Below, in pieces: positions 22,060-53,262 of a DNA stretch of 64,000 nucleotides. The notes beneath the pieces were generated by a model. It was not told where the DNA came from. It saw nothing but the letters and a program-made list of their open reading frames with translations, and did no database searches. Numbering within the stretch: position 1 is the stretch's first letter; every line of letters starts with the position of its first letter. The DNA is from Holosporaceae bacterium UBA7879. Lineage in GTDB: Bacteria > Pseudomonadota > Alphaproteobacteria > UBA7879. The stretch is from NCBI GenBank assembly GCA_002500565.1, contig DLRV01000011.1:42019-106018 (forward strand), given 5' to 3'. The position numbers were made by a program, and so were the translations under genes.

Positions 22060-22400
22060 TTTAATTAAATCCGTCATTCTGAGAGGATCTTTAATCCGCG
22101 TGAGAATCTCATCCATTCCCCCGTCATTGCGAAGGAGTGAAACGACTGTGGGAATCTCTTCCGCCTTTAACAAGACCCTCACGTCGAAATTTCATTTCTC
22201 CTCAGGGTGACGGGTAAATAGAAAAACGTCATTGCGAGGCGGAGCGCAGCTCCAACGTGGCAATCTCTTCTGCCTTCACTCCACAAGACCCTCACGTCGA
22301 AATTGCATTTCTCCTCAGGGTGACTGGTTTTGGTTTATACGTCATCATGAGGAGCTGCTTTGCAGCGACGTGATGATCTCTCTTAGACGCGAGAATCTCT
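22060..22400. repeat. large cluster of palindromic MITE-like repeat units
   Basis: at least 7 units (GTCATTCTGAG...GAGAATCTC, GTCATTGCGAGGCGGAGCG...TGGCAATCTC, CCTCAGGGTGACGGGT, GTCATCATGAGGAG...CGACGTGATGATCTC). Confidence 0.7.
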
Positions 22401-22424
22401 CTAATCTCCTTCAAATTCACCGCC

Positions 22425-24954: not shown

Positions 24955-25060
24955 GCCTCATGAGGGTGACGGGTTCTGGTTCACCCGTCATTCCGAAGGA
25001 GCACCGCGACTGTGGGAATCTCCTTCCAACTCCACACCAACACTCCCCTTAACTCCATAC
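24955..25060. repeat. palindromic MITE-like repeat units
   Basis: CTCATGAGGGTGACGGGTTCTGGTTCACCCGTCATTCCGAAGGAGCACCGCGACTGTGGGAATCTCC. Confidence 0.65.
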
Positions 25061-29378: not shown

Positions 29379-30914
29379 TTAAGCCTTTGCAGATTCTTTT
29401 TCTTTGGCTTCATTGGCTTTCTTAAACTCAATGCTAAGCTTACCAATAGCATAGAACCAAACCACCATGATGGCAATCACAAAGATAAACAAGTATGGCG
29501 CGATTACATCGTATGGGTTCAAGGCTGATCCAGCAATGGTTGCAATCATCAAACTTTGAATCAACGCACCACCAGATTTACCCAAACGGCCACCAACCAC
29601 ATCAACGGCTGCCTTACCTTTAGATTTCAATTCATCAGAAAGTGGGATGTACGACATCTCTTTGGTTGCATCAAACAATGAGTACTTGGTTGATTTACTG
29701 AATACTTGGAAGAACAATCCAACATATACAGACAACATGAGTGGTGAGGCACCAAGCAATGTGTAGAGCCAAGTAAGAAGGTCTTCCGCCAAAATCGTGG
29801 TGAAGAAGATCGCCCCGGTTGTAACAATCATGATTGGTGTCAAGATTGCCGCAACAAACCAACCCCAAACACGGACAATGTTTTGACCGATCAACATAAA
29901 GATAATGGTCACAAATGCGTTTAGTACAGCGAACTGACCAAAGAAGCTTGATTTTGCTGCTTTGTCAGGGAAGAAAGAACTTACGCGTGATTTCCAGCTT
30001 ACCTCAATTAGATTCACAGAAACACCATATCCAACCACCAAGATCAAGATCAACATTAGGTACTTAGAAGACAGAATCAATTTCATGCTGTCACCCAATG
30101 ACATTTTTTCTTTTTTCTTCTTCGGTTTCACATCAGCTGGATCGTACAAACGAGGATCAGACATCACAGATGTATTGGTAAAGCGGTACAGGTACATAAA
30201 GACAAACGCGAACAAAATCACTGGAATCAGGTTCATCAACGTGTGAACATCCCCGGCGTTGTAACCAGAGATAACGATGGCTTCAGACAATGGTTTTGTC
30301 CATTGCATCACCCCACCAGCAAGCATACCACCAAAATTACCGATCAAACCAAACATCGCATAGTAACGTGTTGCTTCACTTACCCGCGTAATTTGGTTAG
30401 CAAACTGCCAGAAAAGAAGAGAAACAACAACACTGCCCCACAATTCAGCCATGGCGTAGTAAAGGGCATAGAACCATTTACCAAAGGTAATCACAACCCA
30501 GTAGAGTGGTGGAACAACCTGACCAACAGAGCGCAACGTTTCCATGTCTGCCATGAGGTAATCTCTAAATGGGTACAGAAGGAAACCCCATACTGATAGG
30601 AACACTACAAAGATCATCGTACAGGTGTAGAATAGCTTCTGACGCGATAAAGAGTTGCTCATTTTTGAGTAAAGAACAAAAAATAACGTTGCCAATGGCA
30701 ATGTAATCAGAAGTTTACAAATGTTAATCGCCGCGGCATCACCCATTTCAGAAAGGACGATCGCATCTTTACTGTTCCGCAAAACAGTGTAGTTGTATAG
30801 CGCGCAAAACATCATAAGCGCCATGGGTAAAAACTTCTTTACCTCAAAGCTATGGATAGGCCAGAAAATACCTCTCAGGCCGGAAAACTGTGGTTTTGTT
30901 TTAGTCACTGACAT
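29379..30914 (-). CDS. tlc: ATP/ADP translocase (nucleotide transporter, NTT family)
   Basis: 511 aa, 12 TM; N-terminal region FSGLRGIFWPIHSFEVKKFLPMALMMFCALYNYTVLRNSKDAIV is highly characteristic of Tlc/NTT transporters of Rickettsiales, Holosporales and Chlamydiae. Confidence 0.85.
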   Translation of the reverse strand: MSVTKTKPQFSGLRGIFWPIHSFEVKKFLPMALMMFCALYNYTVLRNSKDAIVLSEMGDAAAINICKLLITLPLATLFFVLYSKMSNSLSRQKLFYTCTMIFVVFLSVWGFLLYPFRDYLMADMETLRSVGQVVPPLYWVVITFGKWFYALYYAMAELWGSVVVSLLFWQFANQITRVSEATRYYAMFGLIGNFGGMLAGGVMQWTKPLSEAIVISGYNAGDVHTLMNLIPVILFAFVFMYLYRFTNTSVMSDPRLYDPADVKPKKKKEKMSLGDSMKLILSSKYLMLILILVVGYGVSVNLIEVSWKSRVSSFFPDKAAKSSFFGQFAVLNAFVTIIFMLIGQNIVRVWGWFVAAILTPIMIVTTGAIFFTTILAEDLLTWLYTLLGASPLMLSVYVGLFFQVFSKSTKYSLFDATKEMSYIPLSDELKSKGKAAVDVVGGRLGKSGGALIQSLMIATIAGSALNPYDVIAPYLFIFVIAIMVVWFYAIGKLSIEFKKANEAKEKESAKA

Positions 30915-38213: not shown

Positions 38214-39698
38214 TTATTGATTTGTTGCAGCTTTTTCCTCAAAAGCTTTATAGAGGCTATGATAAAGGCTTTCTCGACCATTATCTCTACCATGCTTATG
38301 AAGTTCTTTTATCCATCTAGCGTCCTTATTTTCTTCCTGCATAATCAAATCACAAATGCTATTAACAGCGTAGTTGAAATCATCTGTGTGAGGAATTCTC
38401 AAAGACTCTGAATCAGTATCAATGCCAATCTTTTCAGAAGCAAGTTTTAAAACAGCGCTCAACCGAGGTCTCAGAGCTATAGTTATGATTTTCACCTCAC
38501 CTGGCTGTGTTGTCAAAACTCTACCTTCTCCCTCTTGTTGATCCAAACCAACAGCTGCGCTTGCTGCTGCAGCATGCGCCGACTGAAGCTCTCTGCTCTG
38601 AGCAGACCCTCTAGTGAGCCGCTCTAGATGGGCCAAACGAGCTTCTCTTTCTGACAGATGTCCACCACCTAATCGCTGCGACCCTACTTTTGGAGCTGGA
38701 ATAAACCATTTTATTGTTTTATCAGGTTGACGAGGCTCCGCCATTCTTTCCAAAAGAGCACTACCAGCTGCCTGAGCTGCAACCGTAGCCGCTGCTGCAG
38801 CAGGTTGAGCAGCTTGGTCAGCCTCCATTTGTCGCTCAACTTCTGCACGCATTGCTTTAATGTCTTTTAAAGTTTTTGCAAATTGTTCTTGTCTTTCCGG
38901 GGTGATAGCAGAATCATTCTCTCCCGCCGCTGCCAGCACGACACCTTCTCTCGGTGGAAAGGATCTTCTGCGTGAATCCATTGGAGGCGTTCCGGGTAAA
39001 TCATATCCCTCAGCTGCCGAAGCACCAGCCGCCGGAGCAGCCGCACTATCCTGGCCCACAAAAGATTCTTCTATAATGTCTCTAACCCAATCAACACAAG
39101 CTGCTTGATCTGTTTCAAAAGACTTTTTTAAAATTTTATAAGTATCATCAGAACCTGGATATTTATCTATGGAAACTCTCTGAAACTCATTTGCCAAAAA
39201 ATAGTTAGCTAGGAGCTCAATGGAAGATTCATATTTTTCATGACCTGAATTTTGAAGACTCTTTCTACTTATAGCGCCCTCTTCTATCATGCAATTAATG
39301 AATGCTACACCTGCATCTTCCTGTGTCATTATGGGCTTAACAGTACGGCTATTAATTGCATACAGGTCACCTTCTGTCAATGCAGCAGGTGTAGCCGCAG
39401 CTGCAGCTGTCCCTACAACTTCTGCAAGTGATACCTTTAGAGCTTCTTCCAGGCCTTCATCTCCTGCAGCAGCACCATAACTAGATGCAGCTGGTGTAGC
39501 CGCAGCTGCAGCCGGAGCCGCAGCCCCCACAGCACCTGAACGTGATAAATTCACAGTTTCTTCAATTTGTAGGCGTAATGCCAAATCCCAGTCACCTTCT
39601 TCACCAGCTTTATTTCCTACAGGATCTATATCAGCTGAAAATAAATTAAATGCCGTAACGCTCATAAGCATGGCTGTGATTGAGGTTAATTTTCTCAT
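38214..39698 (-). CDS. secreted Ala-rich hypothetical protein (effector candidate)
   Basis: 494 aa; signal peptide (ITAMLMSVTAFNLFSA); several poly-Ala/AAAAT segments; no catalytic motif recognised. Confidence 0.4.
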   Translation of the reverse strand: MRKLTSITAMLMSVTAFNLFSADIDPVGNKAGEEGDWDLALRLQIEETVNLSRSGAVGAAAPAAAAATPAASSYGAAAGDEGLEEALKVSLAEVVGTAAAAATPAALTEGDLYAINSRTVKPIMTQEDAGVAFINCMIEEGAISRKSLQNSGHEKYESSIELLANYFLANEFQRVSIDKYPGSDDTYKILKKSFETDQAACVDWVRDIIEESFVGQDSAAAPAAGASAAEGYDLPGTPPMDSRRRSFPPREGVVLAAAGENDSAITPERQEQFAKTLKDIKAMRAEVERQMEADQAAQPAAAAATVAAQAAGSALLERMAEPRQPDKTIKWFIPAPKVGSQRLGGGHLSEREARLAHLERLTRGSAQSRELQSAHAAAASAAVGLDQQEGEGRVLTTQPGEVKIITIALRPRLSAVLKLASEKIGIDTDSESLRIPHTDDFNYAVNSICDLIMQEENKDARWIKELHKHGRDNGRESLYHSLYKAFEEKAATNQ

Positions 39699-39960: not shown

Positions 39961-42138
39961 TTATTTCAAATGCGGCCATTCCCTTTTACTTTTAGTGCTT
40001 TTATCGCGGCCATATCCTCGATCCATTTGTATGGCATGCTTCAACCTTCCTTCTGACATAAGAAAAGGGCTGTTTTTAATCATTTCTTGATACTCGGTAC
40101 TCTTTTCAACACGCGCTTTTAATGCGTCTAGGGTTATATTTTTGCCTTTTTCCGTTTTGTATTCGTCACACAATTTTTTTAACAAGGCCCACATTTTATT
40201 TAATTTATTCTGACGGTCTGTTCGTCCGGCTTGATATTTTTCACTGGATAGAAAAAATCCATTGTGAACTCTCAATTTATATTTTGCGCCCTTGTTTTTA
40301 TTAATGATTTTAACAGCTTCTATATTTGTTATATACTCACCCGTTTCTTTATAAACTTGATCAATTGTTGAAAAAATTTCAGCAATAACCTGTTGTTTTT
40401 TATGGTCACGATCATCTTGCGTTTCAATAAATTTTCTTAATTGACCTTGGTCTAATTTGTCTACTATCCATTTAATACGTTTAAACAGAGATTCATTTGT
40501 TAGAGAGGAGACGTCAACCTTACAAAAAAACAAAGATTTATTCTCACGCAGATATACGGATAGCCTATTTACAAGCTTATGAAGTGACATTTTCTTTTTC
40601 TTATTGTCTTTCCATATCTGTTCCATCGCTATCCATAGCTGCTTGATGTTTTCACCCTCATGCGCATCATCAAACAAACCAGGCTGGCGTTTAGTCTTTT
40701 TGGCTTCTAGGCTTTCTTTATCTGGATCTCCTTCATCAAGAGCTGATCCAGCAGAACGCCTTTTTGCTGTTTCTTTTTTACGCATGTCAGAGTTCATAGC
40801 AGCAGCCCCAGAAGCTGTCGCGCCTGCAGCAGCTGCCGCCGCACCATCTCCGTCACCGCTAAGATTAGCTTGCCCAAAAGCAGGCGGCACATCGCCATCA
40901 CTGCTATCCCCCTCATCTGATTCGTCTGACTCACTAGAGGACTGATCCTCATCCGTTTCCATACCACCACCGGGGCTCATGGCAGGGCTTGCCTGCCCAC
41001 TGTCCCCGTCAGCGTCACTATCACCACTCTCATCTGCATCAGAATCCGCTGCTTCAACTCCGCCTGCTTGGCCATCTTCTGGCATACCGCTAACAGCTGC
41101 TTGAACTTGTTGTGCCAAATCTCCATATCCGCGCTCACGCGCTTCTTTAGATCTGGCTTTTGTTACATCTCTCACGCCTACAGGGCTTAGGCTATCTTGG
41201 TCTTCTTGTTCCTCGTGTTCTTCTTGGTCATCTTCCCCATCATCTGCAGCGCCCTGCACCATTGCTTCAGCAAAATCTCCTTGCCCTGCGTGTTGTTGCA
41301 AAAAATTAACCAGTTGAGGTGGCGCATGCTCAACGTGCTCCACCTCCTTATACTGTTCAAAAAGAACCTTCTTTTGCTCTGCTGCTACTTCATCAGAAAT
41401 ACCATCTGGCCGATGCCCCCAATGCAATAAAACCGCTTTGATCAAGGGAATTATCTTAGACCGCGAGTACTTCTCTTGAAGAACAGTTACCAACTTCCAT
41501 GCATTTTGTTTTTCAAAACCAGTTGGCTCCAAACCATAGGCATTCATCTCAGCCACGTTATAAACATAGCTTTTAAGTAAATTGGGAAAGAGCCGTTTAT
41601 CTGCATTATTCAACACCTGCAAACCATTCATTTCTTCTATTTGCTCCCAAATTAAAGCACGAATATTGCGTGCGAAGATAATAAAAGATTGGCCCAAGAT
41701 AATATCCTCACCAGCGGGATAAAATCGCATCATCGACAACATGTTGGACACACTCACTAAAGCTGAGTTTATTTTATGTCTGCGCACATCTTCTGAATCA
41801 TGGTTACCCAAACCAATATAATATTCATCCGTCAAGCGACGCTTTAGTAAATTAAACACGGCTTGCATCGCTGCTATATTATGATCATTTACATCACCTA
41901 ATCCAGGCACACGATCAGCGGCTCTAAGGGAACACATTGCAATAAATCTTTTGAACGCCTTTGCAGCCTCTGAACGATCTACGGGGTTTTCTGGATGAAA
42001 TTTATTTTCATACGCTTGCACCAGCCCTGGACCATGTTCTTTATCCAGTAAATCCTGGCCTCTAATAACAGGTAAAACAGCCTTTATAGATGGCGTTAAT
42101 TGAAAAGCAACCAGCAAACAAGCAATAATTTTTTTCAT
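39961..42138 (-). CDS. secreted protein with central poly-acidic (D/E/S) region (effector candidate)
   Basis: 725 aa; signal peptide (IIACLLVAFQLTPSIKA); N-terminal ~300-aa domain with GLGDVNDHN...GLGNHD reminiscent of metallophosphoesterase motifs II/III; ~150-aa D/E/S/G-rich acidic tract; Lys-rich C-terminal domain. Confidence 0.4.
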   Translation of the reverse strand: MKKIIACLLVAFQLTPSIKAVLPVIRGQDLLDKEHGPGLVQAYENKFHPENPVDRSEAAKAFKRFIAMCSLRAADRVPGLGDVNDHNIAAMQAVFNLLKRRLTDEYYIGLGNHDSEDVRRHKINSALVSVSNMLSMMRFYPAGEDIILGQSFIIFARNIRALIWEQIEEMNGLQVLNNADKRLFPNLLKSYVYNVAEMNAYGLEPTGFEKQNAWKLVTVLQEKYSRSKIIPLIKAVLLHWGHRPDGISDEVAAEQKKVLFEQYKEVEHVEHAPPQLVNFLQQHAGQGDFAEAMVQGAADDGEDDQEEHEEQEDQDSLSPVGVRDVTKARSKEARERGYGDLAQQVQAAVSGMPEDGQAGGVEAADSDADESGDSDADGDSGQASPAMSPGGGMETDEDQSSSESDESDEGDSSDGDVPPAFGQANLSGDGDGAAAAAAGATASGAAAMNSDMRKKETAKRRSAGSALDEGDPDKESLEAKKTKRQPGLFDDAHEGENIKQLWIAMEQIWKDNKKKKMSLHKLVNRLSVYLRENKSLFFCKVDVSSLTNESLFKRIKWIVDKLDQGQLRKFIETQDDRDHKKQQVIAEIFSTIDQVYKETGEYITNIEAVKIINKNKGAKYKLRVHNGFFLSSEKYQAGRTDRQNKLNKMWALLKKLCDEYKTEKGKNITLDALKARVEKSTEYQEMIKNSPFLMSEGRLKHAIQMDRGYGRDKSTKSKREWPHLK

Positions 42139-42199
42139 AAGTTTAAACTAATTTTTCTTTGATATGGATACAAATGAATATTTTTCAACACGGCGTTAA

Positions 42200-42370
42200 A
42201 AAAACGTGTGATTAAAAACCAGCCATTGCGAGGCGGCGCGTAACTCCAACGTGGCAATTTCTTACCCCAAAAACAGTCATTGCGAGGCGGAGCGCACCTC
42301 CAACGTGGCAATCTCTCTTGCCACAAAAAACTCCGTCATCATGAGGAGTCCAGCGGCCGACGTGACTCTC
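42200..42370. repeat. palindromic MITE-like repeat units (3 units)
   Basis: two CCAGYCATTGCGAGGCGG(A/C)GCG...CCAACGTGGCAATYTC units and one GTCATCATGAGGAG...CGACGTGA unit. Confidence 0.7.
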
Positions 42371-42581
42371 CAACTGAAAGACCCCAAAAAAGACCAAAAG
42401 CTGTCTCTGCCTAATGGATTAACTGCAGAAGACTTTGATTTTGTTGAAGCTTTACGTAAAATATATCCCAGACCATCCATGGCTGAAACTTTAGATTTGG
42501 CAAGGCTCACAGCATGCTGAGTTGACTTTAACATAGAAACGTGTCAAATTTTCATATGATAAATTAACCAGGGAATATAAC

Positions 42582-43442
42582 ATGTCACACAATCCTTTTT
42601 CAGCTCATCGCGTTGTTTTTGGCGCTTTTTTTGATAGTTTTCGTAATATCGGCACCAGCATTCGTTTAAGCTTAGCACCGCTGGCACTTATCATTGCAAT
42701 GGCCTTAACCGTTGCCCATGTAACAGACAGCAGCTTGGCCGTATGGGCATTCATGATCCCCCTCCTTTTCATCATGTACTTTACGTTTCCAATCACATCT
42801 ATTCACTTTGCCAATAATGGTGAAACTGGCAATAATATTACAGGTCACACCACCAAAGGAATTGGTCGTTATTTCCTGGCACTGTTAGGATATATTCTTA
42901 TTGCAGTTCTGGCTCTGGGCGTTGTTGCTGCATTTGATTTTTTGCTAGCAAAACTATCACTTAATCCAAATTCTTTTTTATGGTCACTTATCGCAAACAT
43001 TTTTACTTTTTACGTTATGATGCGAATAGCTCCAATCCAATGCTTCGCTATTATCTCTAATACATCCTCAATTAAGTACACCCTGCGCCACACCCGCCAT
43101 CGCGTTTGGTTTATTTTCCGTAGTCAGATTTTTGGTGTGCTTTGTGTGCTTTTATTAATGGCACTTATTGTTTTGCCATCAATCATAACGCTTAGGTCTG
43201 TTATTTCTGCTGATTTCTGGGCCACTCTATCCGTTCAACCAGGTCAACCCGTCATGCTACATGAGCAAATTAACATGGCCATGTCAGTTTTATCTCGTGA
43301 CATCATGATGAATGCATCACAATTTTTACTTATTGCTAACGTACTTTGGGTTGTTCTTATGTACATGTTTATGTTGTTTACAGCTTTGATGATCAACACC
43401 CGCATTGCCCAGGTTCTAAAAGACAACCCGTCGCAAAAATAA
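42582..43442 (+). CDS. polytopic inner-membrane protein (hypothetical)
   Basis: 286 aa; about 6 hydrophobic helices. Confidence 0.4.
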   Translation: MSHNPFSAHRVVFGAFFDSFRNIGTSIRLSLAPLALIIAMALTVAHVTDSSLAVWAFMIPLLFIMYFTFPITSIHFANNGETGNNITGHTTKGIGRYFLALLGYILIAVLALGVVAAFDFLLAKLSLNPNSFLWSLIANIFTFYVMMRIAPIQCFAIISNTSSIKYTLRHTRHRVWFIFRSQIFGVLCVLLLMALIVLPSIITLRSVISADFWATLSVQPGQPVMLHEQINMAMSVLSRDIMMNASQFLLIANVLWVVLMYMFMLFTALMINTRIAQVLKDNPSQK

Positions 43443-43504
43443 ATCAATAAAGGCCGCCGGCTTTGGTGGCTGGCGGTTATATTCAAAAATGAAGTGAGTT
43501 AAAC

Positions 43505-44536
43505 ATGACGAAAAGCGCTCAAACCACTCCCCAAACAACCTTTGGTATTTTCTGGGCCAGCCTGTTTTCACCTCTCACTCATTTTATAACGTTTTTGCGT
43601 TTCTGCTCTGTGCCTATTTTTTATCAGCTGGTTTTTGGTGTTGCCATGGGGTTCGTTGCACCATATGTGCCAGCCTTTCTATACTTCTTCATACTTATGC
43701 TTGGCCAAGCTTTCCTGTTCTTATTCTTTGATACATTATTTGATGTTTCTGTCAGCCGTTTGTGTGATGGCCAGGCAAAGGGCACAGGCATCTCAAAGCT
43801 TTCGTTTTATGGCTGTGGTTGGCGTACATTTTTTGTCAACGTTAAGCTGATTCTTATTTTTCTGCCTGCCTTCATATTGTTAGCTGCTTTTGTTTTGCAC
43901 AGCTTGGGATCTTTCCATCAGCCTGTATCGGCAGCTGTTCAACAATACTTTTATGATGCCTCAGTCATGCCGCCAACTTTGCGCGCCCTGGTTGAACGCA
44001 CACTTATTAATCTTGGCGTTGCCGTATTTTTTATTATGGCGATTGCGCTTTATTTTTACAGCCGTTTCAGCGTTGCCGAGCCTGCGGCAGCCCTTGGCGA
44101 GAACCCTCACCTAAGCACTGCATGGCACACAACCCATGCTAACAAAACCTTACTCTACAAAATTCATTGGCTATTATTTCCTCTTTACATCCTGGTTTCC
44201 TGGTCTGGAGAAATCACAAAACCCACACCTTTACCAACAACCAATAACGCCAAACAACCAATTCAAGTTGCCGCATCAGAGACAGTCGAAACGACAGCAA
44301 ACGGACAATCTAGTGCTTTTTCTATAGAATATAAAATGCCAAAAAACTATGATTTAAATGGCGCCTCAAAAACAACACCAGCACAAACCACTTCGGTCAA
44401 AAGCCTTTTTAGCCGCGGCGCGTTAATGAATTTATTATTGGGCGGCGCTTCACTATTGATTGGCTATCTATTTTCTTTCATTTCCGGCTTTGCTGTAACG
44501 CTTGGGTACCGGAAACTGTCACCACGGAAGAAATAA
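43505..44536 (+). CDS. polytopic inner-membrane protein (hypothetical, possible paralogue of preceding gene)
   Basis: 343 aa; similar N-terminal architecture (F-rich amphipathic start then TM helices) to 42582..43442. Confidence 0.4.
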   Translation: MTKSAQTTPQTTFGIFWASLFSPLTHFITFLRFCSVPIFYQLVFGVAMGFVAPYVPAFLYFFILMLGQAFLFLFFDTLFDVSVSRLCDGQAKGTGISKLSFYGCGWRTFFVNVKLILIFLPAFILLAAFVLHSLGSFHQPVSAAVQQYFYDASVMPPTLRALVERTLINLGVAVFFIMAIALYFYSRFSVAEPAAALGENPHLSTAWHTTHANKTLLYKIHWLLFPLYILVSWSGEITKPTPLPTTNNAKQPIQVAASETVETTANGQSSAFSIEYKMPKNYDLNGASKTTPAQTTSVKSLFSRGALMNLLLGGASLLIGYLFSFISGFAVTLGYRKLSPRKK

Positions 44537-44569
44537 GGTTAACAATCAATCATTCTCTGAAGAGTGTTT

Positions 44570-44950
44570 ACATCTCACCCGTCATTAGGCGGGTGTCTCA
44601 TGCCTTTACCAGTCATTGCGAAGCGGAGCGCAGCCCAAAACCCGTCATTCTGAGCGGATTTTTAATCCGCGTGAGAATCTGATTTCGCCCAATCGTCATC
44701 ATGAGGAGCTACCTTGTAGCGACGTGATGATCTCTTTCTATTTCACTTAGATCCTCACGCTCTCTTCCCTCGCTCAGGATGACCGGTAAAAGGGGAAGCG
44801 TCATCATGAGGAGGCGTTCACGCCGACGTGATGATCTCATCTGCCTTTAACAAGACCCTCGCGTCAAAATTGCATTTCTCCTCAGGGTGACGGGTAAATA
44901 GAAACCCATCATTCTGAGCGGATTTTTAAATCCGCGTGAGAATCTCCCTT
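44570..44950. repeat. large cluster of palindromic MITE-like repeat units (at least 8 units)
   Basis: all unit types present: CACCCGTCATTAGGCGGGTG, GTCATTGCGAAGCGGAGCG, GTCATTCTGAGCGGATTTTTAATCCGCGTGAGAATCT (twice), GTCATCATGAGGAG...CGACGTGATGATCTC (twice), CCTCAGGGTGACGGGTAAATAGAAA. Confidence 0.75.
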
Positions 44951-44958
44951 AAAGCTTA

Positions 44959-46377
44959 CTAAATAGCAGCTGGTCTTAGCAGCCCCCTGTAACATTCTCC
45001 AAAAAGCTCCATCAAGCTTTCCAACTGATCAGCTGGTACATAAACCCTTTGCAAATTTGTAAAAAAATATTGTGGAAACATTATAAATCTTTCTGATACT
45101 GACAAACTTAAGTATAGAATTTGTAGGAATTTAGTCTCATCCAATAAACGAACCCCAACATGCGTCAATGCTGGCGCATATAGGTGCAGGACTTGTAGGG
45201 AGTAATTCATACTCAAAAATGCATTCCCAACACTCGTCAATGCTGGTACATAGAGATGCATAGTTTGTAGATCGCGGGGGCCACTCAGGACATTATGCCC
45301 ACAACGCGTTAATGCTGGCATATATAGATGCAAAGTTTGCAGATTGAGGTTGCTAGAAAAGAAATAATCCCCAATTGTTTGCACGCTCTCATCAGCATTG
45401 GTTAGTACCAAGTTACGCAGACGATTGGGGAGATCTGCTCTGCCCCGCATGGTAAACACTGGGCCCGCAGCATCAATATCTATAACAACTGTTGGTTGTG
45501 GACCCTCAGCATTTTCTGGCAATAAGCGATTGATATCATCTTTTAATCCAGCCAGCTGGCTGTGTTGAACAACCCAGTAAGAGTCTGTATCAATCGCTTC
45601 CGTTTCAGCGGTGATTTCTTGGTAGTTTGTATCAAGAAACGTCTGCAATCCATTGTGCCCACGTGGGTTCCAAACCCGATCACGGAAAGCTTGCATCCAC
45701 TCTTTTTTCTTGTCTTCAGTGGTATAGTAAACTTCATAGCCAAAAAACTGATGCTGCAATGCGGCTTTTTGCACAAACGTTAAATCTTGTGCATCCTCAC
45801 CCAACGCCTGCAGAATAAGCCTGTACATGTTCTCATGCTGCATGCTCTCACTTTTACTTGCAATGCTCATCGCCATCTCACTGTTGTTTTTTATGGCAAG
45901 AAGCTCATAGCTTCCCAGAGCAGCCTTTAAAATACCTTTTCTCTCTTCTGGTAGATAGCGACGAGATAAAACTTGTTTTAAATCGACTGAAATTCTCTCC
46001 AAGTGAAAAACAGGCAATCCCATATCAGGCAATGCCTTACCCGTTGGATCTTTAGGCCCACCACTCTCTTGATACAGAGCTTTCTTCAGGTGATGAATAC
46101 GTGCATCACCAACCATTCTTGTCATTTGTCTTGAAGCTTCAGCCAACCGCACTGCCGACGTAGGATCCAGAAAGGGCACGATACGATCAATAACCTCTTG
46201 TGGCAGATTCGCTAACGTTGGAGGAGAATCTGATGCTTGCGGCGATGCCGCTGCCGCAGCGGCAGGCTCAGTCTCTTCAGCTTCATCGTTTGGGCCTACG
46301 GCCTGCACCGAGGTGCTCATCATGCCAAGAACCAATGCTATGCCAAGCCATAGCTGTAAAATCTTTTTCATAATCAC
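44959..46377 (-). CDS. secreted leucine-rich-repeat protein (BspA/LRR_5-like; effector candidate)
   Basis: 472 aa; signal peptide (LQLWLGIALVLGMMSTSVQA); C-terminal ~22-aa repeats LQTLHLYMPALTRCGHNVLSGP / LQTMHLYVPALTSVGNAFLSMN / LQVLHLYAPALTHVGVRLLDET. Confidence 0.55.
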   Translation of the reverse strand: MIMKKILQLWLGIALVLGMMSTSVQAVGPNDEAEETEPAAAAAASPQASDSPPTLANLPQEVIDRIVPFLDPTSAVRLAEASRQMTRMVGDARIHHLKKALYQESGGPKDPTGKALPDMGLPVFHLERISVDLKQVLSRRYLPEERKGILKAALGSYELLAIKNNSEMAMSIASKSESMQHENMYRLILQALGEDAQDLTFVQKAALQHQFFGYEVYYTTEDKKKEWMQAFRDRVWNPRGHNGLQTFLDTNYQEITAETEAIDTDSYWVVQHSQLAGLKDDINRLLPENAEGPQPTVVIDIDAAGPVFTMRGRADLPNRLRNLVLTNADESVQTIGDYFFSSNLNLQTLHLYMPALTRCGHNVLSGPRDLQTMHLYVPALTSVGNAFLSMNYSLQVLHLYAPALTHVGVRLLDETKFLQILYLSLSVSERFIMFPQYFFTNLQRVYVPADQLESLMELFGECYRGLLRPAAI

Positions 46378-46509
46378 GATCCTTATCTTGAGGATTAACT
46401 TTATTTTAATAACTTTGTATACCCCTCGGCATAAAAGTTAAATAAGATTAAAAAAAAATTTTTCAAGAGGGGGATTAAGAATCAGCTCTACTCTAAGTTC
46501 AGATAATCT

Positions 46510-46875
46510 TCACACACATATTCCCCTAAATTCAACACGGTAACCAATCACATCGTTTTTAATGGTTGCCACCTCAATAGCAGCGCCAACAAGAAAGTGC
46601 ATTTGGCTCTCTTCAATATCCAAAACTGTATTAGACAGCTCCTCCAATCGCTCCAGAACTTCCTGAATTTGCAATGTATGCGCAACGTCACACCACACAG
46701 TTAAGTTAGCCTCTATGATTTTGTATCCCTCGTAATCACCTTTGCCAACAGTCGCCTGTTTCATTTCTAAAATTCCATAGGGGCGTTTTATTTTTTGTGG
46801 TACGTGTAAATAAACTGGAATTGGCAAACGCTCCGTTAAAACCTGCTTAAGTCTCGATAAAGTTTGCAACATCAT
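46510..46875 (-). CDS. phage/GTA head-tail joining (tail-completion, g8/DUF3168-like) protein
   Basis: 121 aa; position after g6/g7-like genes in an HK97/GTA-type head module. Confidence 0.4.
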   Translation of the reverse strand: MMLQTLSRLKQVLTERLPIPVYLHVPQKIKRPYGILEMKQATVGKGDYEGYKIIEANLTVWCDVAHTLQIQEVLERLEELSNTVLDIEESQMHFLVGAAIEVATIKNDVIGYRVEFRGICV

Positions 46876-47191
46876 ATGTTACCTCCTTCATCACAAAATA
46901 CAGCCAAGGGCTGGTCGCATCCTTTACGGGTTCTGAGGCCAACTCAAAAAACCGATCTTGCCATTTAACCAAATAGTCACTTTCCAATGGGTGCCCTGCG
47001 TCCATCCAAACCTTATAAAGCGCTTTCAGTTGCTTTTGATCAGCGCTATAGACCACACGTTCTTGACTCGGCCTAATGGCCCGAACCGCCGCCCATGAAT
47101 TAAAAACCGCTATCAGCTCTTGTCTACCATGGTCAACATGCACAGCTGTAATGGGCTCAACCAAATCAAAAGGCGTAATATGTATTTTCAT
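46847..47191 (-). CDS. phage/GTA head-tail adaptor (g7-like)
   Basis: 114 aa; size and position typical of head closure/adaptor protein downstream of gp6-like connector. Confidence 0.45.
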   Translation of the reverse strand: MKIHITPFDLVEPITAVHVDHGRQELIAVFNSWAAVRAIRPSQERVVYSADQKQLKALYKVWMDAGHPLESDYLVKWQDRFFELASEPVKDATSPWLYFVMKEVTYDVANFIET

Positions 47192-47796
47192 GCCACACCT
47201 CGCTTAATATAAGGCATCAGTAATCCCTTCAGCGCTGCATGGTCCAACCGCTCTCCACCATAATAAAAACTTTGGGCCAGCATCATAATCGCCATTTTCA
47301 AAGATTCCGGCACATCAGCTGGCGTTGGTCCATATCCAACCAATGCCTCAAGTTTTAAAACGTCCAAGGGGGCCATTTTTAAACTCACCCGGGTTCGCTC
47401 TCCCAAGGCACGTTGGTAAAGATCATCCAAGTTCACTGCATGTTCTTGGCCTTTGCTGATCCGCCATGCTGCATAAATATTTTGAATTGGCGCGGTGGGT
47501 ACAGAAAACTCCTTGTCCACAAGGGTTTGTTGTCCTTGCTCAACCGCATTCATTCCCTGCATCTTCGCGCGCCCAGCACATGTGACAAAAACGCGTTGGT
47601 TGATAAGCCGCAACTGTAATTTTGCTTCAATATTTTCCTGTGCAGCTTTTAATACTTTTCCTAAAGCTTCATCGGCATGGTAATGAGTCACACGCATATA
47701 ATTTTTAAATTCATAAAGTGGAACCGCTGACATGGATGGGGGGTCAATAATTTTAATCATGATTATTCCTTTCATAAAAAAAAGCGCCGCCAACAA
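47188..47796 (-). CDS. phage gp6-like head-tail connector protein (g6-like)
   Basis: 202-aa ORF (true start probably internal, MIKIIDPP); LEEAKxHLRVD-type pattern (LYEFKNYMRVTHYHADEALGKVLKAAQENIE) of gp6-like connector family. Confidence 0.5.
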   Translation of the reverse strand: MLAALFFMKGIIMIKIIDPPSMSAVPLYEFKNYMRVTHYHADEALGKVLKAAQENIEAKLQLRLINQRVFVTCAGRAKMQGMNAVEQGQQTLVDKEFSVPTAPIQNIYAAWRISKGQEHAVNLDDLYQRALGERTRVSLKMAPLDVLKLEALVGYGPTPADVPESLKMAIMMLAQSFYYGGERLDHAALKGLLMPYIKRGVA

Positions 47797-47801
47797 AAAA
47801 A

Positions 47802-47816
47802 CCAGGCAAAACCTGG
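47802..47816 (-). terminator. rho-independent terminator candidate
   Basis: CCAGGCAAAACCTGG hairpin with A7 upstream on plus (T-run on minus), 40 bp after capsid-gene stop. Confidence 0.45.
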
Positions 47817-47855
47817 GTCATTCATCAGCAAGCGCGTATGTATTTTTAGTTTGAG

Positions 47856-49481
47856 TTAAGCTTGGAAATTCAACAGTTTCAAAGCATCCGGATTAACAAC
47901 CGCTCCTCCTGTTCGTTTTGTGATATAAAACTCAACGTGGGGTTTAGAACTGTATGGATCGCGTAAAATATGCATTCCACTGCGGTCAACAATTTGGTAG
48001 GCCTCCTTAAAGTTTCCAAAGGCAATCGCAACTCCGGCTTGTCCACCTTGTAAGGCTGGCATTTCATCACACACCTCAACCGGATACCCAAGCAAGGTTG
48101 AAACCGCTCCACCCAGTCCTGGCTGCCAGAGGTAATGCCCAGTTGCAGGGTCCTTCAACTTGCGCACCGCGGCTACAGCGGAACGTGACATCAACCAGCA
48201 TGCACCTTGTAAATATTTGGTTTGTAAGCTTTGCATCACATCAATCAGCAAATCAGCTGGTTTCTGCTCTGGAAAAGCTCCATCCACACCCGAATTCAAT
48301 GTGCCAATTTCTTGGCCGTTGTTCGCATTTAGCTCACCACGTGCATGGGTTAAAAACCCTGAAGGTTTATTATTCCCATCTCCATTCACAAACGCCGCTG
48401 TTTCCATCCGCGCCATCCGATCAGCCACACACTGAACCAACCAGTTTTCAACATCAACCTTGGCATCATCCAGCAACTTCTGGGTTGCCCGTGGTTTGGC
48501 ATAAACTTCGTGCACTGCAATGCGCAGCTTTTTAATCTCGCCGGCATCTGTTTCCGCCCGATCGTTTTCTTCAGCTGTCCAGCCTGCATCCGCCAACGAA
48601 CCTGTCAGCAACACATCCACAGCACTGGTGGAAATTTGCATTGTCCGTGCCAGTTTTCTTAAGGGCGACAACGCTTCAATATTCCCCAGCAGGCGGTCAT
48701 GCAAAATTTCAGGAATCAGGTGCCCGCCGTGCTCCTCATCCGTTGTTGTGAGGCCCTTCTGTCGCCACCCCTGCCCCGAGCGCATGAAATTGGCAAAACC
48801 ATGCGCTTTTTCTTCCATGTTTGTTAACGCTGTCGCTGGTTTTTCGTTTGTTTGATTTGTGATCATCTTTTTCTCCTTTTGTTGATCAGTTAATTGATTG
48901 GTTGTTTCAAGCACTTGGTGTTTAACCGTTTGAATTTGCGCTTGTTGATGAGCCGGGAACGTAACCAGAGAAATCTCTAAAAGATTGACCCTTTCAATGG
49001 TAAATCCGCCGGCTTCATTGGGTTGATGCTTCTCGCTGATAAAACCAATAGACAGGCCATCAATTTCACCTTCTTTGAGCAAGGCATAAACTTCACGGGC
49101 CTTGGCCACTTGTAAAAGCAACTTCCCTGTCACCTTCAGCCCATGACTATCCTCTTCAATGCTCAGCCATTGCCCGATAGGGGTTTCTTTATCATGTTGC
49201 CACAATAATTTGGGCCGCTTTTGCTTATGGACATATGCTTGTAAAGACTGGCTAAAAGCCCCCGGCAAGATCACGTCTTGATCCTGATCTGGCTCATTGA
49301 AAACACTGGCATAGCCAGTAAAAATCCCCTCTTCTGAAACTGATTTCAAAGTCAGGGGTTGCACAGCATGGCTGCGCTTGAAGTGCGACATATGTCTCTC
49401 CTTGGTTGTTAAATTGAATTTTGATTGGGTGAAAAAATACTTAAGTAAATTAGCTATCAATAAGCTTGTAGACAGGCACAA
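47856..49481 (-). CDS. HK97-family prohead protease fused to HK97-family major capsid protein
   Basis: 541-aa single ORF; N-terminal ~170 aa has prohead-protease (S78) features (VFNEPDQDQDVILPGAF, HGLKVTGKL, ISLVTFPAHQQAQI); remaining ~370 aa is HK97-fold major capsid (FANFMRSGQ, LIPEILHDRLL, GEIKKLRIAVHEVYAKPRATQKLLDDAKVDVENWL); possible internal start MITNQTNEK. Confidence 0.7.
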   Translation of the reverse strand: MCLSTSLLIANLLKYFFTQSKFNLTTKERHMSHFKRSHAVQPLTLKSVSEEGIFTGYASVFNEPDQDQDVILPGAFSQSLQAYVHKQKRPKLLWQHDKETPIGQWLSIEEDSHGLKVTGKLLLQVAKAREVYALLKEGEIDGLSIGFISEKHQPNEAGGFTIERVNLLEISLVTFPAHQQAQIQTVKHQVLETTNQLTDQQKEKKMITNQTNEKPATALTNMEEKAHGFANFMRSGQGWRQKGLTTTDEEHGGHLIPEILHDRLLGNIEALSPLRKLARTMQISTSAVDVLLTGSLADAGWTAEENDRAETDAGEIKKLRIAVHEVYAKPRATQKLLDDAKVDVENWLVQCVADRMARMETAAFVNGDGNNKPSGFLTHARGELNANNGQEIGTLNSGVDGAFPEQKPADLLIDVMQSLQTKYLQGACWLMSRSAVAAVRKLKDPATGHYLWQPGLGGAVSTLLGYPVEVCDEMPALQGGQAGVAIAFGNFKEAYQIVDRSGMHILRDPYSSKPHVEFYITKRTGGAVVNPDALKLLNFQA

Positions 49482-49731
49482 AATTTTTAAGTAGCATTAT
49501 AAGAAAAACAGGGATTTGACAGATGAAAAATACTCCAGCTTATTCTTTTCTATCTGCCGCCATTCATTCTTACTATAAAACCAGCTTAGCATATGTTAAG
49601 GCAGCGTCAGCACTGTTTAGAGCAAAAGGTTCAATTCATCATTGGCTAGCAATAGATGGTGATGACAAAATAAAATCAATGCTCACCACTTTTAACTGCC
49701 CTTTCCCTCAATAATATTAAGGAGTAAAATA

Positions 49732-50031
49732 ATGGAGAAATATTTTTTAATAAAGAAACAACATATTGTCCTATTTTTTGCAATATCTACTCTAAGCCAA
49801 TGTTTGGCCTCAACCACACTATCTAAAGTACAAGCTTATGGGTGTGCGGTTAACTATGAAATGAAAGCTCAAACATTTTCTGATAGATCAGGAAAAACGA
49901 TACAAATTAAAACCGATGATATAGCCAAAAAACAATGTCCAGATGTTTGCTCACCTTATGGTTCCTGGAACGGACAATGGGGAGATAACTGGGGTGAAAA
50001 TACTTTTTGCTGCTGTTCTAGGCCTGCTTAA
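49732..50031 (+). CDS. small Cys-rich lipoprotein (hypothetical)
   Basis: 99 aa; signal peptide with lipobox LSQC; C-terminal CPDVCSPYGSWNGQWGDNWGENTFCCCS. Confidence 0.4.
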   Translation: MEKYFLIKKQHIVLFFAISTLSQCLASTTLSKVQAYGCAVNYEMKAQTFSDRSGKTIQIKTDDIAKKQCPDVCSPYGSWNGQWGDNWGENTFCCCSRPA

Positions 50032-50533
50032 CAGACACAAAAAACTTATTACTGCTTTTGTATAAATTTTTTATTAACACTTGTCAATAAAAATTTTTCA
50101 AAAAAATAACTTTATCCGCTATTAAAAACTCGGCCCCAAAGTACCGAGTTTAGAAGAGAGAAAGTTGTTTGCCAAACTCTTCTTCTTGATCCATGTTATA
50201 GTTATACCCGATCTTATGAACGATTTTCTTAAGACTCCCTCGATAGGGTTCCTCAAATACCTTATGATAATACTTTGGGATCCACACAAAGTGGTACATA
50301 ATCCTGAATACATAATGTGAATTCCGATCTACTTCCGTAGGCTTATACTGCGCGGGCTAAAATTATACGATAATTTTAGTTATAGCTGCGCATGTATTGA
50401 AATTCTGAAAAAATGTTTTTATATAAGCCAGGCGCATTCAAGAGTGAAGTGCAACACCGTTATTGAATAAGAAAAAAATATCATTATGGATTAAGTAAAA
50501 AGAAGTGGATGATAAATTATTAAGTAGGACACA

Positions 50534-50558
50534 GGGCTCCTCAGATTAAAGGAGCCCT
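50534..50558. terminator. hairpin between convergent genes (possible terminator)
   Basis: AGGGCTCCTCAGATTAAAGGAGCCCT hairpin followed by TCTTTCC; next to the MATE gene stop. Confidence 0.3.
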
Positions 50559-50572
50559 CTTTCCTTCAAAGC

Positions 50573-51955
50573 CTATACAACGACTTGCGGCTCTTTTGTG
50601 ACATCAAGTTTCTTCCACTTACCCGACTGATAGCGTCGTATAAACAAAAGTAAATTCATTGAAGCATAGAAAACCAAGAACACCCATTGCATCGATGGGC
50701 TAATCAAATCCATCTTCATAGCTATAACACATGGGATAAAACCAAATAAAAAGGCGCAAGCTGGGTTTGCAAACATGATAAAAACTGTATCCCCTGCTGA
50801 TTTCATAATCCCAACAATAACCCATACAAAACTATCAATGAGCATAAACAACCACACGTAACGCAAAGCCCAAACACTATGTATGTAGAGCTCAGAGCCA
50901 TAAATATACCGCGCTTGGTCAATTTCTAAAACATCCAAAATAATTTCTGGATATATCACCATAAAAGGTAATAAAATTAATAGCCACAAACCTACCAGTT
51001 TAGCAGCTGAACGAATTAATTTTGGAATTAGTTCTATTTGCTTTGAACCAATCAAATTTGCAGCTATTGCCGTTGTTCCTTTTTCTAACCCCTCTGTAAA
51101 GAAAATAAAGAAAATAAGAATTGTTTGCCCAACCACAAATACAGTCAAAAAAATCTCTCCTTGTTGCGATGAAAAATAAAATAACAGGCTCCAACCCAAC
51201 ACCTCAATTGTATGTCCAATAGCTGATGGCAGTCCAATTCGCACACTTTCACGCATTAACTTCATATTAAACGCCAAAGTAAGTGTTTTAAATTTTTCTC
51301 GAAAATGCGGTTTTAGATAAGAGAAGACTAAAATTAAACAAATAGCCAGCTCTCCTAATAATGTTGCATAGGCTGCACCTTCAACACCCATACTTGGGAT
51401 TGGACCAATCCCAAATATTAAAATTGGATCCATAATTATATTTACAAAATTGCCAGCCAATGAAGCGTATAAAGAAATTTTTGTTTTTCCAATTCCGGCA
51501 AAAAATCCATTAAGGGCAGCTGAAAGGCACAACAATGTTCCCCCACTCAAAAAAATTCGCATATAAGGCACGCCATATGTATGCTGAGAAGATTCAATGA
51601 AATATGGCGCAATAAAAAAAGCAGATGGAACAAAAACCAAAGTGGCGGCTAAGGCCACGAGAATCATTTGTCCGGTGGCCTTACCGACTTCATGATATTT
51701 TCCAGCACCGTTGTATTGACCAACAAACACTTCACTAATAGCACAGAGAGAAAGGGGTATAAGTAAAAAGGTGTATGATATCAACCCCCCAACGGCAGCA
51801 CCGTTCATTGCCTCTACCTTGTAATGAGAAAGGAAAAGACGATCAAAAAAGTTCATCAAGCTTCCCGTCAACAACCCTAGAATGATAGGGCCGGCAATGG
51901 TAAAAAGCTCGGGAAGGCTAGCGGTTGGGTATTTTGTTAAATGTTTTTCAGACAT
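50573..51955 (-). CDS. MATE-family multidrug efflux transporter
   Basis: 460 aa, 12 TM; MATE-family pattern across two 6-TM halves (LLIPLSLCAISEVFVGQYNGAG, etc.). Confidence 0.7.
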   Translation of the reverse strand: MSEKHLTKYPTASLPELFTIAGPIILGLLTGSLMNFFDRLFLSHYKVEAMNGAAVGGLISYTFLLIPLSLCAISEVFVGQYNGAGKYHEVGKATGQMILVALAATLVFVPSAFFIAPYFIESSQHTYGVPYMRIFLSGGTLLCLSAALNGFFAGIGKTKISLYASLAGNFVNIIMDPILIFGIGPIPSMGVEGAAYATLLGELAICLILVFSYLKPHFREKFKTLTLAFNMKLMRESVRIGLPSAIGHTIEVLGWSLLFYFSSQQGEIFLTVFVVGQTILIFFIFFTEGLEKGTTAIAANLIGSKQIELIPKLIRSAAKLVGLWLLILLPFMVIYPEIILDVLEIDQARYIYGSELYIHSVWALRYVWLFMLIDSFVWVIVGIMKSAGDTVFIMFANPACAFLFGFIPCVIAMKMDLISPSMQWVFLVFYASMNLLLFIRRYQSGKWKKLDVTKEPQVVV

Positions 51956-52021
51956 AATATATAATAATTTTTCATTAAGAAAAAAGTTATCACGCTTAAG
52001 GTCAACAAAAAACGAACATAA

Positions 52022-53218
52022 TTACGCATATAAAGAAGATATTCCTGGCAAGGTGTTGCCCTCAAGCCACACTAAAAAAGCGCCGCCAGCCGTTGACAGA
52101 TAAGTAAACCCTTCAGTTTCTCCCGCTTTTTCAATTAAGGCTAACGTATCTCCACCACCGGCAATGCTAATCAAGCCTTGCTTTTTAGTTGTCTCAGCTA
52201 AAGCTCTGCTCACAGAATCCGTCCCTTTAGTAAAGATATCAATTTCAGCAATACCTAAGGCGCCATTCCAAACAACTGTTTGGCTTTTATTAATCACCTC
52301 AATAATTTCCTGAATTGTATTGGGCCCAGCATCCACAACAATATCATCATTCTTAATTTGATCGTATGCACAGATTCTTGTTTTGGCATTGGCATCAACC
52401 TTATCAGCAACCATTACATCTGTTGGCAAAATCAGGTTACATTCTGCCTCCATGGCCTTTGTCCGCAATCGGCTGGCTTCATTAATATAATCAGGCTCCA
52501 CCAATGATTTGCCAACGGGCACGCCCTTTTGAAGAAAAAATGTGTTCGCCATCGCGCCCACCACCACCAGTGTATCAACCTTATCTACCAGGGATTCCAA
52601 CAATCCAATCTTAGTTGAAACTTTAGCCCCACCAATAATGGCTGTTAAGGGCTTCTTAGCCGGCCTCAAAAATTTTGTCAGGGTTGCAATTTCTGTATGG
52701 AACAAAAACCCCATCATTGCTGGTTTCAATTTTGCCAATGCCACAATCGATGCATGGGCTCGGTGCGAACATGCAAAAGCATCATTAACATACAAATCAA
52801 TACCTTTGGCTAATTCCGCAGCAAAACCAGTGTCTCCCTTTTCTTCTCCGGGATAAAACCGTAAGTTCTCGCTCACCAATATCTGCCCTGGTTTCAGAGC
52901 CTTCGCTTCTTGGCCCCAACTTGCTGGATCGTTATTCTCCACAAACTTAAAATTAAATTTAGGAAAAACTTCATTTAAAGCTGGCAAAACCAGGCGCATA
53001 GATAAATCTGGATTGAACTTCCCCTTAGGCCGCCCTAGATGAGACGCTAAAACAACTTTGGCACCCTGTGCTACCAAATAATCCAGAGTCGGTTTAATGG
53101 CCTTTACCCGAGATAAATCTGTAACATGCCGATTGTCATCTAACGGCACATTCAAGTCTACGCGCAGGAAAACCACTTGATCTTTTACATTATAGTCTTT
53201 TGGTGTAGGGTAAGTCAT
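52022..53218 (-). CDS. pgk: phosphoglycerate kinase
   Basis: 398 aa; N-terminal LRVDLNVP, ASHLGRPKG; C-terminal GGGDT/AGGAFL motifs. Confidence 0.9.
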   Translation of the reverse strand: MTYPTPKDYNVKDQVVFLRVDLNVPLDDNRHVTDLSRVKAIKPTLDYLVAQGAKVVLASHLGRPKGKFNPDLSMRLVLPALNEVFPKFNFKFVENNDPASWGQEAKALKPGQILVSENLRFYPGEEKGDTGFAAELAKGIDLYVNDAFACSHRAHASIVALAKLKPAMMGFLFHTEIATLTKFLRPAKKPLTAIIGGAKVSTKIGLLESLVDKVDTLVVVGAMANTFFLQKGVPVGKSLVEPDYINEASRLRTKAMEAECNLILPTDVMVADKVDANAKTRICAYDQIKNDDIVVDAGPNTIQEIIEVINKSQTVVWNGALGIAEIDIFTKGTDSVSRALAETTKKQGLISIAGGGDTLALIEKAGETEGFTYLSTAGGAFLVWLEGNTLPGISSLYA

Positions 53219-53262
53219 CGTTTCAGGAATTTTTAAAATACAATAACATACCCAAACGTGCC

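Follow-up and report, generated by a model that had tools for sequence, protein, structure and literature searches.

Domain architecture of the F-box/LRR gene

The stretch analysed here, referred to as the window, comprises 64,000 nucleotides of contig DLRV01000011.1 from Holosporaceae bacterium UBA7879. On its minus strand lies a gene whose predicted product combines a Sec-type signal peptide, an F-box, a middle domain and, at the C-terminus, a solenoid of leucine-rich repeats (LRR), and this F-box/LRR gene is the subject of the present analysis. At the position described in an earlier annotation made from the letters alone (the sequence-only reading), 44959-46377, the open reading frame (ORF) is present; it lies on the minus strand and reads 472 aa from the listed GTG start at 46377; an ATG at 46371 gives 470 aa. 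The ATG is the likelier start since an AAGGA at 46380-46384 lies 8 nt before it and just 2 nt before the GTG, and since all homologues begin with MKK or MKR. This very 470-aa product is called on a Tara Oceans contig. Residue numbers throughout follow the 472-aa numbering.

The N-terminus, MKKILQLWLGIALVLGMMSTSVQA followed by VGPNDE, was read directly from the sequence rather than with a signal-peptide predictor, and displays n-, h- and c-regions with a V-x-A pattern at −3/−1. This agrees with the signal peptide noticed by the sequence-only reading. It is kept in the alignments of every full-length homologue, and the AlphaFold model renders it as a single N-terminal helix of low predicted local distance difference test score (pLDDT). 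The linker behind it (VGPNDEAEETEPAAAAAASPQASDSPPT) differs in length among homologues.

The N-terminal half had been regarded as non-repetitive, which is correct, but the F-box at residues 55-100 had been overlooked. Taking the F-box consensus of PF00646 / PF12937 (about 40 aa, LPxE..I...L.....L..V(C/S)(K/R).W) as reference, residues 55-91 (LANLPQEVIDRIVPFLDPTSAVRLAEASRQMTRMV) gave weak matches to the Pfam families F-box_4 and F-box-like, with E about 2e-3. Ten family members all matched F-box, with a best E of 8.5e-8, and F-box-like, with 6.7e-7 at best, when their equivalent stretches of 51-56 aa were scanned singly. The homologues P0010 and P0053, which have the middle domain in common with the window protein, exceed the Pfam cut-offs both for F-box (26.7 versus 20.5 bits) and for LRR_5 (54.9 and 50.5 versus 27.7 bits), and P0014 also exceeds that for F-box. 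A profile of the segment compared with the PDB had FBXW8, FBXL5, FBXL2 and FBXW7 as its four best matches; the E-values were only 0.025-0.4, and all four align exactly on the F-box motif LPxE(L/V)xxxI(F/V)xxL. The modelled segment forms three helices that superpose on the F-boxes of FBXW7, Skp2 and KDM2B at 1.9-2.0 Å, as an F-box fold should. We take the F-box as established for the family and as very probable in the window copy, which is borderline by its Pfam scores.

The middle domain is conserved in the family and matches no known family; searches of NCBIfam and PHROGs gave no match for the F-box/LRR protein.

In the C-terminal part, about six LRR units could be delimited: one of 26 aa (residues 320-345), four more that begin at residues 346, 370, 394 and 418, and a cap that begins at 442. 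The motif copies LQTLHLYMPALTRCG, LQTMHLYVPALTSVG and LQVLHLYAPALTHVG correspond to a family of three direct DNA repeats (D1) of 80-83% identity, spaced by exactly 72/72 nt. Self-identity of the protein at offset 24 amounted to 41 of 149 positions, and the other offsets from 15 to 39 gave 4-15. The motif and the presence of at least three units, both claimed by the sequence-only reading, were therefore recovered; its period of 22-23 aa was not, the period being 24 aa. Pfam LRR_5 was found in the homologues P0002, P0003, P0053 and P0010 at 30-55 bits, above the cut-off of 27.7. In the AlphaFold2 model of the whole protein, which has a mean pLDDT of 67.6, a beta-strand recurs each 24 residues (at 322, 348, 372, 396, 420 and 444, through 447) with a pLDDT of 76-89 and a single dip to 55. 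Foldseek searches with this whole-protein model gave weak E-values (at best 1e-3) and mostly LRR proteins, among them Treponema pallidum TpLRR (6mlx, probability 1.00), the Bacteroides BspA-like structures 3sb4 (1.00) and 4fs7, and PcpA. A family profile searched against the PDB retrieved LRR structures with E down to 1e-13; its top match was the Ralstonia GALA structure 9j7j, whose repeats also have a 24-residue period. Repeat period, homologue scores and model all point to tandem units of the LRR_5 class in a solenoid fold, and support the prediction that the C-terminal domain is a BspA/TpLRR (LRR_5)-class LRR solenoid of an exported protein. Both the solenoid and the resemblance to BspA-like proteins, which the sequence-only reading had proposed to check, are borne out in this way.

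Table 1. Coordinates of the F-box/LRR gene, its parts and the repeats in the window.
Feature	Position	Strand	Description
F-box/LRR protein CDS (signal peptide, F-box, middle domain, LRR)	44959..46371	minus	470 aa from ATG; ORF list
5' leader/promoter region moving with the gene	46378..46467	minus	kept upstream of paralogues (blastn versus L013, L002, L015; L013 versus L003)
Sec-type signal peptide MKKILQLWLGIALVLGMMSTSVQA	46300..46371	minus	predicted cleavage after VQA; read from sequence
Acidic, Ala/Pro-rich low-complexity linker VGPNDEAEETEPAAAAAASPQASDSPPT	46216..46299	minus	alignments; pLDDT 26-43
F-box, residues 55-100	46078..46215	minus	LANLPQEVIDRIVPFLDPTSAVRLAEASRQMTRMVGD...
Family-specific middle domain, residues ~101-319 (220 aa)	45421..46077	minus	mixed alpha/beta; motifs QHENMYRLILQALGE and QKAALQHQF
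Recombination crossover interval	45987..46065		79 nt identical in window, X and Y; three-way alignment, mismatch maps
LRR solenoid, residues 320-472	44962..45420	minus	predicted; four 24-aa units after one of 26 aa, then a C-terminal cap; of the BspA/TpLRR (LRR_5) class
Three near-identical 72-nt (24-aa) LRR units	45127..45342	minus	'LQT-HLY-PALT--G' type; direct-repeat family D1
Array of ~7-8 REP-like hairpin units	44578..44950		42-47 nt, core GTCAYYNYGARS ... ATCTC; convergent intergenic region 3' of gene
REP-like hairpin arrays in the window	18365-18410, 20887-21000, 22067-22381, 24980-25022, 42216-42348, 44578-44950		

A lineage-restricted family with recombining paralogues

A word-indexed search of 5.8 billion clusters returned seven relatives of the protein, and an exhaustive HMMER search of 1.84 billion representatives returned 177 matches at E up to 1e-3, about 17 of which cover the non-LRR part, the remainder being generic LRR_5 proteins. 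Using the family alignment as query against species-representative genomes, 125 pattern matches were obtained and none was confirmed. With the neighbouring capsid protein as query, the relatives found were only about 50% identical and none of their loci has an F-box/LRR homologue. The gene contexts of the relatives are bacterial and include UvrB/RmuC, rpsD, BacA/FecCD and GlmS/RecO. As judged from these searches, the protein is lineage-restricted and not a conserved housekeeping periplasmic factor; the latter would have told against the sequence-only reading, and about 17 relatives among 1.84 billion representatives do not suggest it. The paralogues that this reading had recommended looking for exist, with at least three copies in the population of one metagenome-assembled genome (MAG): a Joint Genome Institute (JGI) marine metagenome that overlaps the NCBI MAG GCA_002696935.1 contains three family copies, namely P0002 and, on a separate contig, a tandem pair of P0006 and a 494-aa copy. 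The number of units varies as well, since the 578-aa P0002 has nine units of the HLY type and the window gene has three.

Comparison of the copies revealed the window gene to be an exact hybrid, the two parental paralogues coming from a different metagenome (ERZ27286400): gene X on contig L003 and gene Y on contig L014. Above 46065 the window shows 0 mismatches to L003 as far as 46700, where the three-way alignment ends, and over 45398-54000 the two are 99.3% identical with all counted mismatches below 46000. Below 45987 there are 0 mismatches to L014 down to about 44850, and identity over 40000-46389 is 99.7%. The order of genes on L003 is capsid module, gene X and a major facilitator superfamily (MFS) transporter gene, and on L014 gene Y is followed by a 343-aa gene. 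X and Y diverge moderately up to 45398, which is the exact start of the LRR domain, and their DNA is unalignable beyond.

The tandem pair lies on L013 (JGI 3300020380 contig 8, 6001-8731) and consists of the truncated 259-aa P0006, with a Y-type N-terminus, and a 494-aa copy that matches gene X of L003 exactly in its LRR part. L013 is 99.3% identical to L003 and differs from it in upstream synteny, with the context switching about 97 nt ahead of the start codon; synteny of the window with L013 ends at about 46467. A scan for sigma-70 promoters over the wider region did not rise above chance, terminator-like sites numbered 5 against 2.0 ± 1.3 expected, and we claim neither a promoter nor a terminator from these scans.

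The ratio of nonsynonymous to synonymous substitution rates (dN/dS) between copies was 0.3-0.75, reaching 1.05 over the first 100 codons of one pair; the X-Y comparison over the LRR part was saturated. These values are those of relaxed constraint, and positive selection is not demonstrated by them. From the alignments we infer that the paralogues recombine, swapping LRR cassettes and 5' ends and rearranging the chromosome as they do so. Inversion between inverted copies would explain why the essential genes downstream of X are retained. On the strength of these comparisons, the mover of the gene is homologous recombination between paralogues.

Repeats, neighbouring genes and organism

The intergenic region 3' of the gene contains a cluster of hairpin repeats. 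Their outer stem is conserved (GTCAYYNYGARS ... ATCTC), and the inner stem varies yet stays mutually complementary. We counted 17 occurrences of the core motif in the window, versus 0.66 in shuffles, at six intergenic sites (~18371, ~20921-20954, 22123-22341, ~24987, 42276-42335 and 44612-44880). No comparable repeats were seen in the 5' intergenic region of the gene, nor did we find terminal inverted repeats or a target-site duplication bracketing it. Hairpin copies also adjoin P0002 and P0007, as expected of elements that fill intergenic space. By its organisation the cluster is of the type of repetitive extragenic palindromic sequences and bacterial interspersed mosaic elements (REP/BIME-like), a genome-wide family. 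The repeat cluster that the sequence-only reading placed around the gene is thus real; it lies on the 3' side only, and its description as a miniature inverted-repeat transposable element (MITE) was rejected, the units being 42-47-nt hairpins in dispersed arrays. The mobility which that reading drew from the repeats is likewise not upheld, as the hairpins are dispersed over at least six intergenic sites and stand on one side of the gene only.

Upstream, the gene is preceded by a fusion of a prohead protease with an HK97 capsid protein, by genes for a gp6-like adaptor and for head completion, and by one that weakly matches a tail terminator, a module resembling the head genes of gene transfer agents (GTA) that ends at 46510 without tail genes following. 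The sequence-only reading had seen this GTA head module beside the gene, and the capsid, adaptor and head-completion genes are indeed there; a functional tie is not borne out, because the linkage is not conserved, three of four related contexts being without it. The adjacency recurs only in L003 and L018 and is absent in L001, L013, L015 and L020, and the capsid loci of related MAGs (L004-L012) are without a homologue of the gene. We regard the adjacency as incidental, the gene standing at a synteny breakpoint.

A second GTA-like or phage-derived fragment is located at 21046-24141, 23 kb from the capsid module, and contains an HK97 portal (22918-24141), a phrog_6637 protein and a lysozyme-type endolysin (21046-21555) whose best NCBIfam match, BaGTA BgtA, is below cut-off. 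The window ORFs that were scanned included no terminase or tail gene. Convergent with the F-box/LRR gene lie two adjacent, family-less multi-pass membrane proteins on the plus strand (42582-43442 and 43505-44536); the pair accompanies the Y-type 3' context in L014 and L018.

Several orphan ORFs without Pfam match are found in the window, at 16626-18284 (plus, 552 aa), 18508-20610 (plus), 38214-39698 (minus) and 39961-42138 (minus), the last three with Sec-type signal peptides by eye. In those at 18508-20610 and 38214-39698, an acidic 'DP(A/E)E'-like motif comes right after the predicted cleavage site and is followed by Ala-rich linkers. Their leader is of the same kind as that of the F-box/LRR family and may serve as a shared export leader. 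Inside the 700-aa orphan ORF, two tandem 81-nt repeats (19116-19277, 85% identical) encode Pro/Gly-rich units (LNPHKPGN...). The family-less, 1067-aa signal-peptide protein at 25113-28316 (minus; 29% Ala, 13% Gln) has coiled-coil-like repeats with a period of 339-408 nt, in a region of 53% GC with a strong AT skew.

A TLC ATP/ADP translocase is encoded at 29379-30914 (E 3e-156); such translocases are a hallmark of energy-parasitic obligate intracellular bacteria, and this one accords with the intracellular context suggested by the sequence-only reading. Type VI secretion genes, VgrG (701 aa), TssG and TssF, occupy 58720-63649, 12 kb from the F-box/LRR gene, and a MORN-repeat protein is encoded directly downstream of them (57965-58711). 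Holosporineae are described as having an uncharacterised type VI system almost throughout (PMC11909080), and the window genes fit that system. GTA clusters, for their part, are reported to be widespread in protist endosymbionts (PMC9254644).

The NusA protein is 100% identical to that of an NCBI MAG labelled 'Rickettsiales bacterium', with 81% for the next match and about 60% for the nearest named relatives, which are of Rhodospirillales type. The protease-capsid fusion is 44-50% identical to proteins of Holosporales, Holosporaceae, Nucleicultricaceae and other alphaproteobacterial MAGs, and over 18.6 kb the window matches a Tara Oceans contig at 100% identity. The organism is probably a marine, obligately intracellular protist symbiont, provisionally placed as Holosporales-like because of its capsid relatives, the TLC translocase and the type VI genes.

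Interpretation and comparison with known systems

The explanation that we favour, with a little better than even confidence, is that the gene encodes an exported mimic of the substrate receptor of a eukaryotic Skp1-Cullin-F-box (SCF) ubiquitin ligase. It is through the F-box that the generic 'interaction module' of the sequence-only reading becomes this specific hypothesis. Domain architecture, family conservation, variable unit number, mosaicism and a gene content of the intracellular type were all observed; that the signal peptide is cleaved, that the protein is delivered to the host, that it binds Skp1 and that targets are ubiquitinated is inferred. The Sec signal peptide would carry the protein across the inner membrane, and a putative second step would then bring it into the host. 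There, in the cytosol, the F-box would dock onto host Skp1 and the BspA-type LRR solenoid, perhaps together with the middle domain, would bind at least one host protein, with the result that bound host proteins would be ubiquitinated or the host SCF titrated. Recombination together with tandem gain and loss of 24-aa units would diversify target specificity and incidentally rearrange the chromosome. The evolution of the family is effector-like in that relatives are few, copies are multiple, units number three versus nine, dN/dS is 0.3-0.75 and X and Y form a mosaic. F-box effectors are documented in Legionella, Ralstonia, Orientia, Amoebophilus and Parachlamydiaceae, and illustrate how intracellular bacteria hijack host ubiquitination.

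Several points weigh against an SCF mimic. The F-box segment of the window protein stays below the Pfam cut-offs (F-box-like 23.2 versus 24.3 bits; F-box 14.6 versus 20.5), as does its LRR part (PF13306 LRR_5, 18.2 versus 27.7 bits), and the canonical F-box Trp is replaced by Met. The F-box also seems dispensable within the family, because P0005, which is without it, and P0004, in which it is degenerate, both retain the middle and LRR domains. The chief tension lies in the Sec signal: it is not the exit route of known F-box effectors, LRR_5 proteins bearing a signal peptide are usually surface or periplasmic proteins, and type VI cargo is normally without Sec signals. Both the route across the outer membrane and the encounter with host Skp1 are hypothetical. 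For F-box effectors known so far, secretion is of type III, type IV or type I (PMC4209131, PMC2790608, PMC11401901). Export as cargo of the type VI cluster was considered and judged unlikely given the Sec signal.

The same signal peptide is shared with the rival explanation that we take most seriously and nevertheless consider unlikely, namely a surface or periplasmic adhesin or envelope protein of the BspA/TpLRR type, whose LRRs would bind host-surface or envelope ligands and whose F-box-like helices would be a structural remnant without a Skp1 role. Besides the conserved Sec signal, the LRR_5 class with TpLRR, Bacteroides LRR and PcpA as structural neighbours would fit such a protein, and so would the sub-threshold F-box of the window copy and its loss or degeneration in P0005 and P0004 with the remainder retained. 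However, most members keep the F-box signature, three of them at or above the Pfam cut-offs, the fold is F-box-like, and neither a lipobox Cys nor a C-terminal beta-barrel or sorting signal was seen on reading the sequence.

An extension of the SCF-mimic reading appears doubtful, more so than the adhesin. Host-directed effectors, the F-box protein included, would be exported by a Sec-dependent two-step route with a shared leader, coupled to cassette-like recombination of the LRRs. The proposed leader would consist of the signal peptide, an acidic 'DP(E/A)E' after the cleavage site and an Ala-rich linker, and would be common to the F-box family and the orphans 18508-20610 and 38214-39698. If true, the two-step Sec route would be a mode of effector delivery undescribed for F-box proteins.

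It is quite improbable that this exact protein is not made because assembly has fused two paralogues into a chimera, or because the window gene is a copy in decay. The perfect join of L003 and L014 through a 79-nt identical stretch, the origin of both contigs in one metagenome, the start of L014 just 18 nt upstream of the gene and the existence of a truncated paralogue, P0006 (259 aa), speak for this reading. Yet the identical hybrid with its flanks is also present in another sample, Tara Oceans run ERR599058, on a contig of 110,742 bp, and the 'k127' in the name of that contig, if it denotes the assembly k-mer, exceeds the 79-nt shared stretch; the hybrid is therefore probably not an assembly artefact. 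The reading frame is intact, and dN/dS stays below 1 save in one short segment. Either parental paralogue has an equal architecture, so the biological conclusion would be unchanged in the case of a chimera. Finally, an accessory role in the adjacent GTA-like or phage-derived particle, for example as a receptor-binding or fibre protein, is highly improbable and was dropped because synteny with the capsid module is not conserved: although in both the window and L003 the gene comes immediately after those for protease-capsid, adaptor, head completion and terminator and shares their strand, its homologues stand in unrelated contexts (RmuC/HATPase, rpsD, BacA/ABC transporter, GlmS/RecO), the capsid loci L004-L012 are without it, and the protein has a Sec signal peptide and no PHROG or NCBIfam match.

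Returning to the putative SCF mimic, its closest functional analogues are the GALA/RipG effectors of Ralstonia solanacearum, which likewise have an F-box at the N-terminus and, behind it, LRRs with a 24-residue period, occur in multiple copies and are proposed substrate receptors of the host SCF (PMC13243912), and NEX1a of Neochlamydia, a protein of a protist endosymbiont with an N-terminal F-box, a conserved region without assigned function and a variable number of C-terminal LRRs, which evolves by birth and death and is a presumed effector (PMC4209131). The window repeats lack the GAxALA motif of GALA/RipG, the units reading LQTLHLYMPALTRCGHNVLSGPRD and being of the Pro-containing BspA/TpLRR type (LRR_5); GALA/RipG proteins have a type III signal instead of a Sec-type signal peptide; a 220-aa middle domain separates F-box and LRRs in the window protein; and no sequence relationship exists beyond generic domains. 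NEX1, from which the family was set apart by description, comprises up to 138 members, in which the linker measures about 50 aa and secretion is of type III (PMC4209131), whereas the window family is alphaproteobacterial and small, numbering at least three copies in a genome population, and has the 220-aa middle domain and a Sec signal. By analogy, the protein may work like GALA/RipG and NEX1a while belonging to neither family (for NEX1a, as judged by description), because it has no GALA motif, another LRR class, a novel middle domain, a Sec leader and a different lineage.

The eukaryotic FBXL proteins (Skp2, FBXL2, FBXL5) resemble it in the order of F-box and LRRs, in the alignment of the motif with FBXL5 and FBXL2 and in the superposition of the model on the Skp2 F-box, but their LRRs contain Cys and follow the F-box directly, and a signal peptide is absent from them, in contrast to the bacterial-class LRRs and the Met for Trp of the window protein. 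The BspA/TpLRR (LRR_5) surface proteins are alike in repeat class, predicted fold and signal peptide and unlike in having no F-box and a unit of usually about 23 aa versus 24. As to export, the 63-kDa and 89-kDa periplasmic proteins of Holospora obtusa are released into the host at infection (PMC9866348; PMC11909080), so that delivery from periplasm to host would have a precedent in Holospora (PMC9866348); the analogy concerns the route only, and no similarity of sequence or domains is claimed.

The terms F-box, leucine-rich and eukaryotic-like are absent from a comprehensive review of Holosporales (PMC11909080), and among the papers listed by a search that combined 'F-box' with names of Holosporales genera, none reports such a protein from them. 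If the SCF-mimic reading is true, the gene would provide a concrete effector candidate for an abundant, uncultured lineage of marine symbionts, would pose the problem of the path by which an F-box protein exported through Sec arrives in the host cytosol, and would constitute a clean natural case of LRR-cassette exchange between paralogues that rearranges the chromosome too. Set beside the systems compared above, the protein is most likely a host-manipulating F-box/LRR effector of an already known general type, from a lineage and with an export signal undescribed for such proteins.

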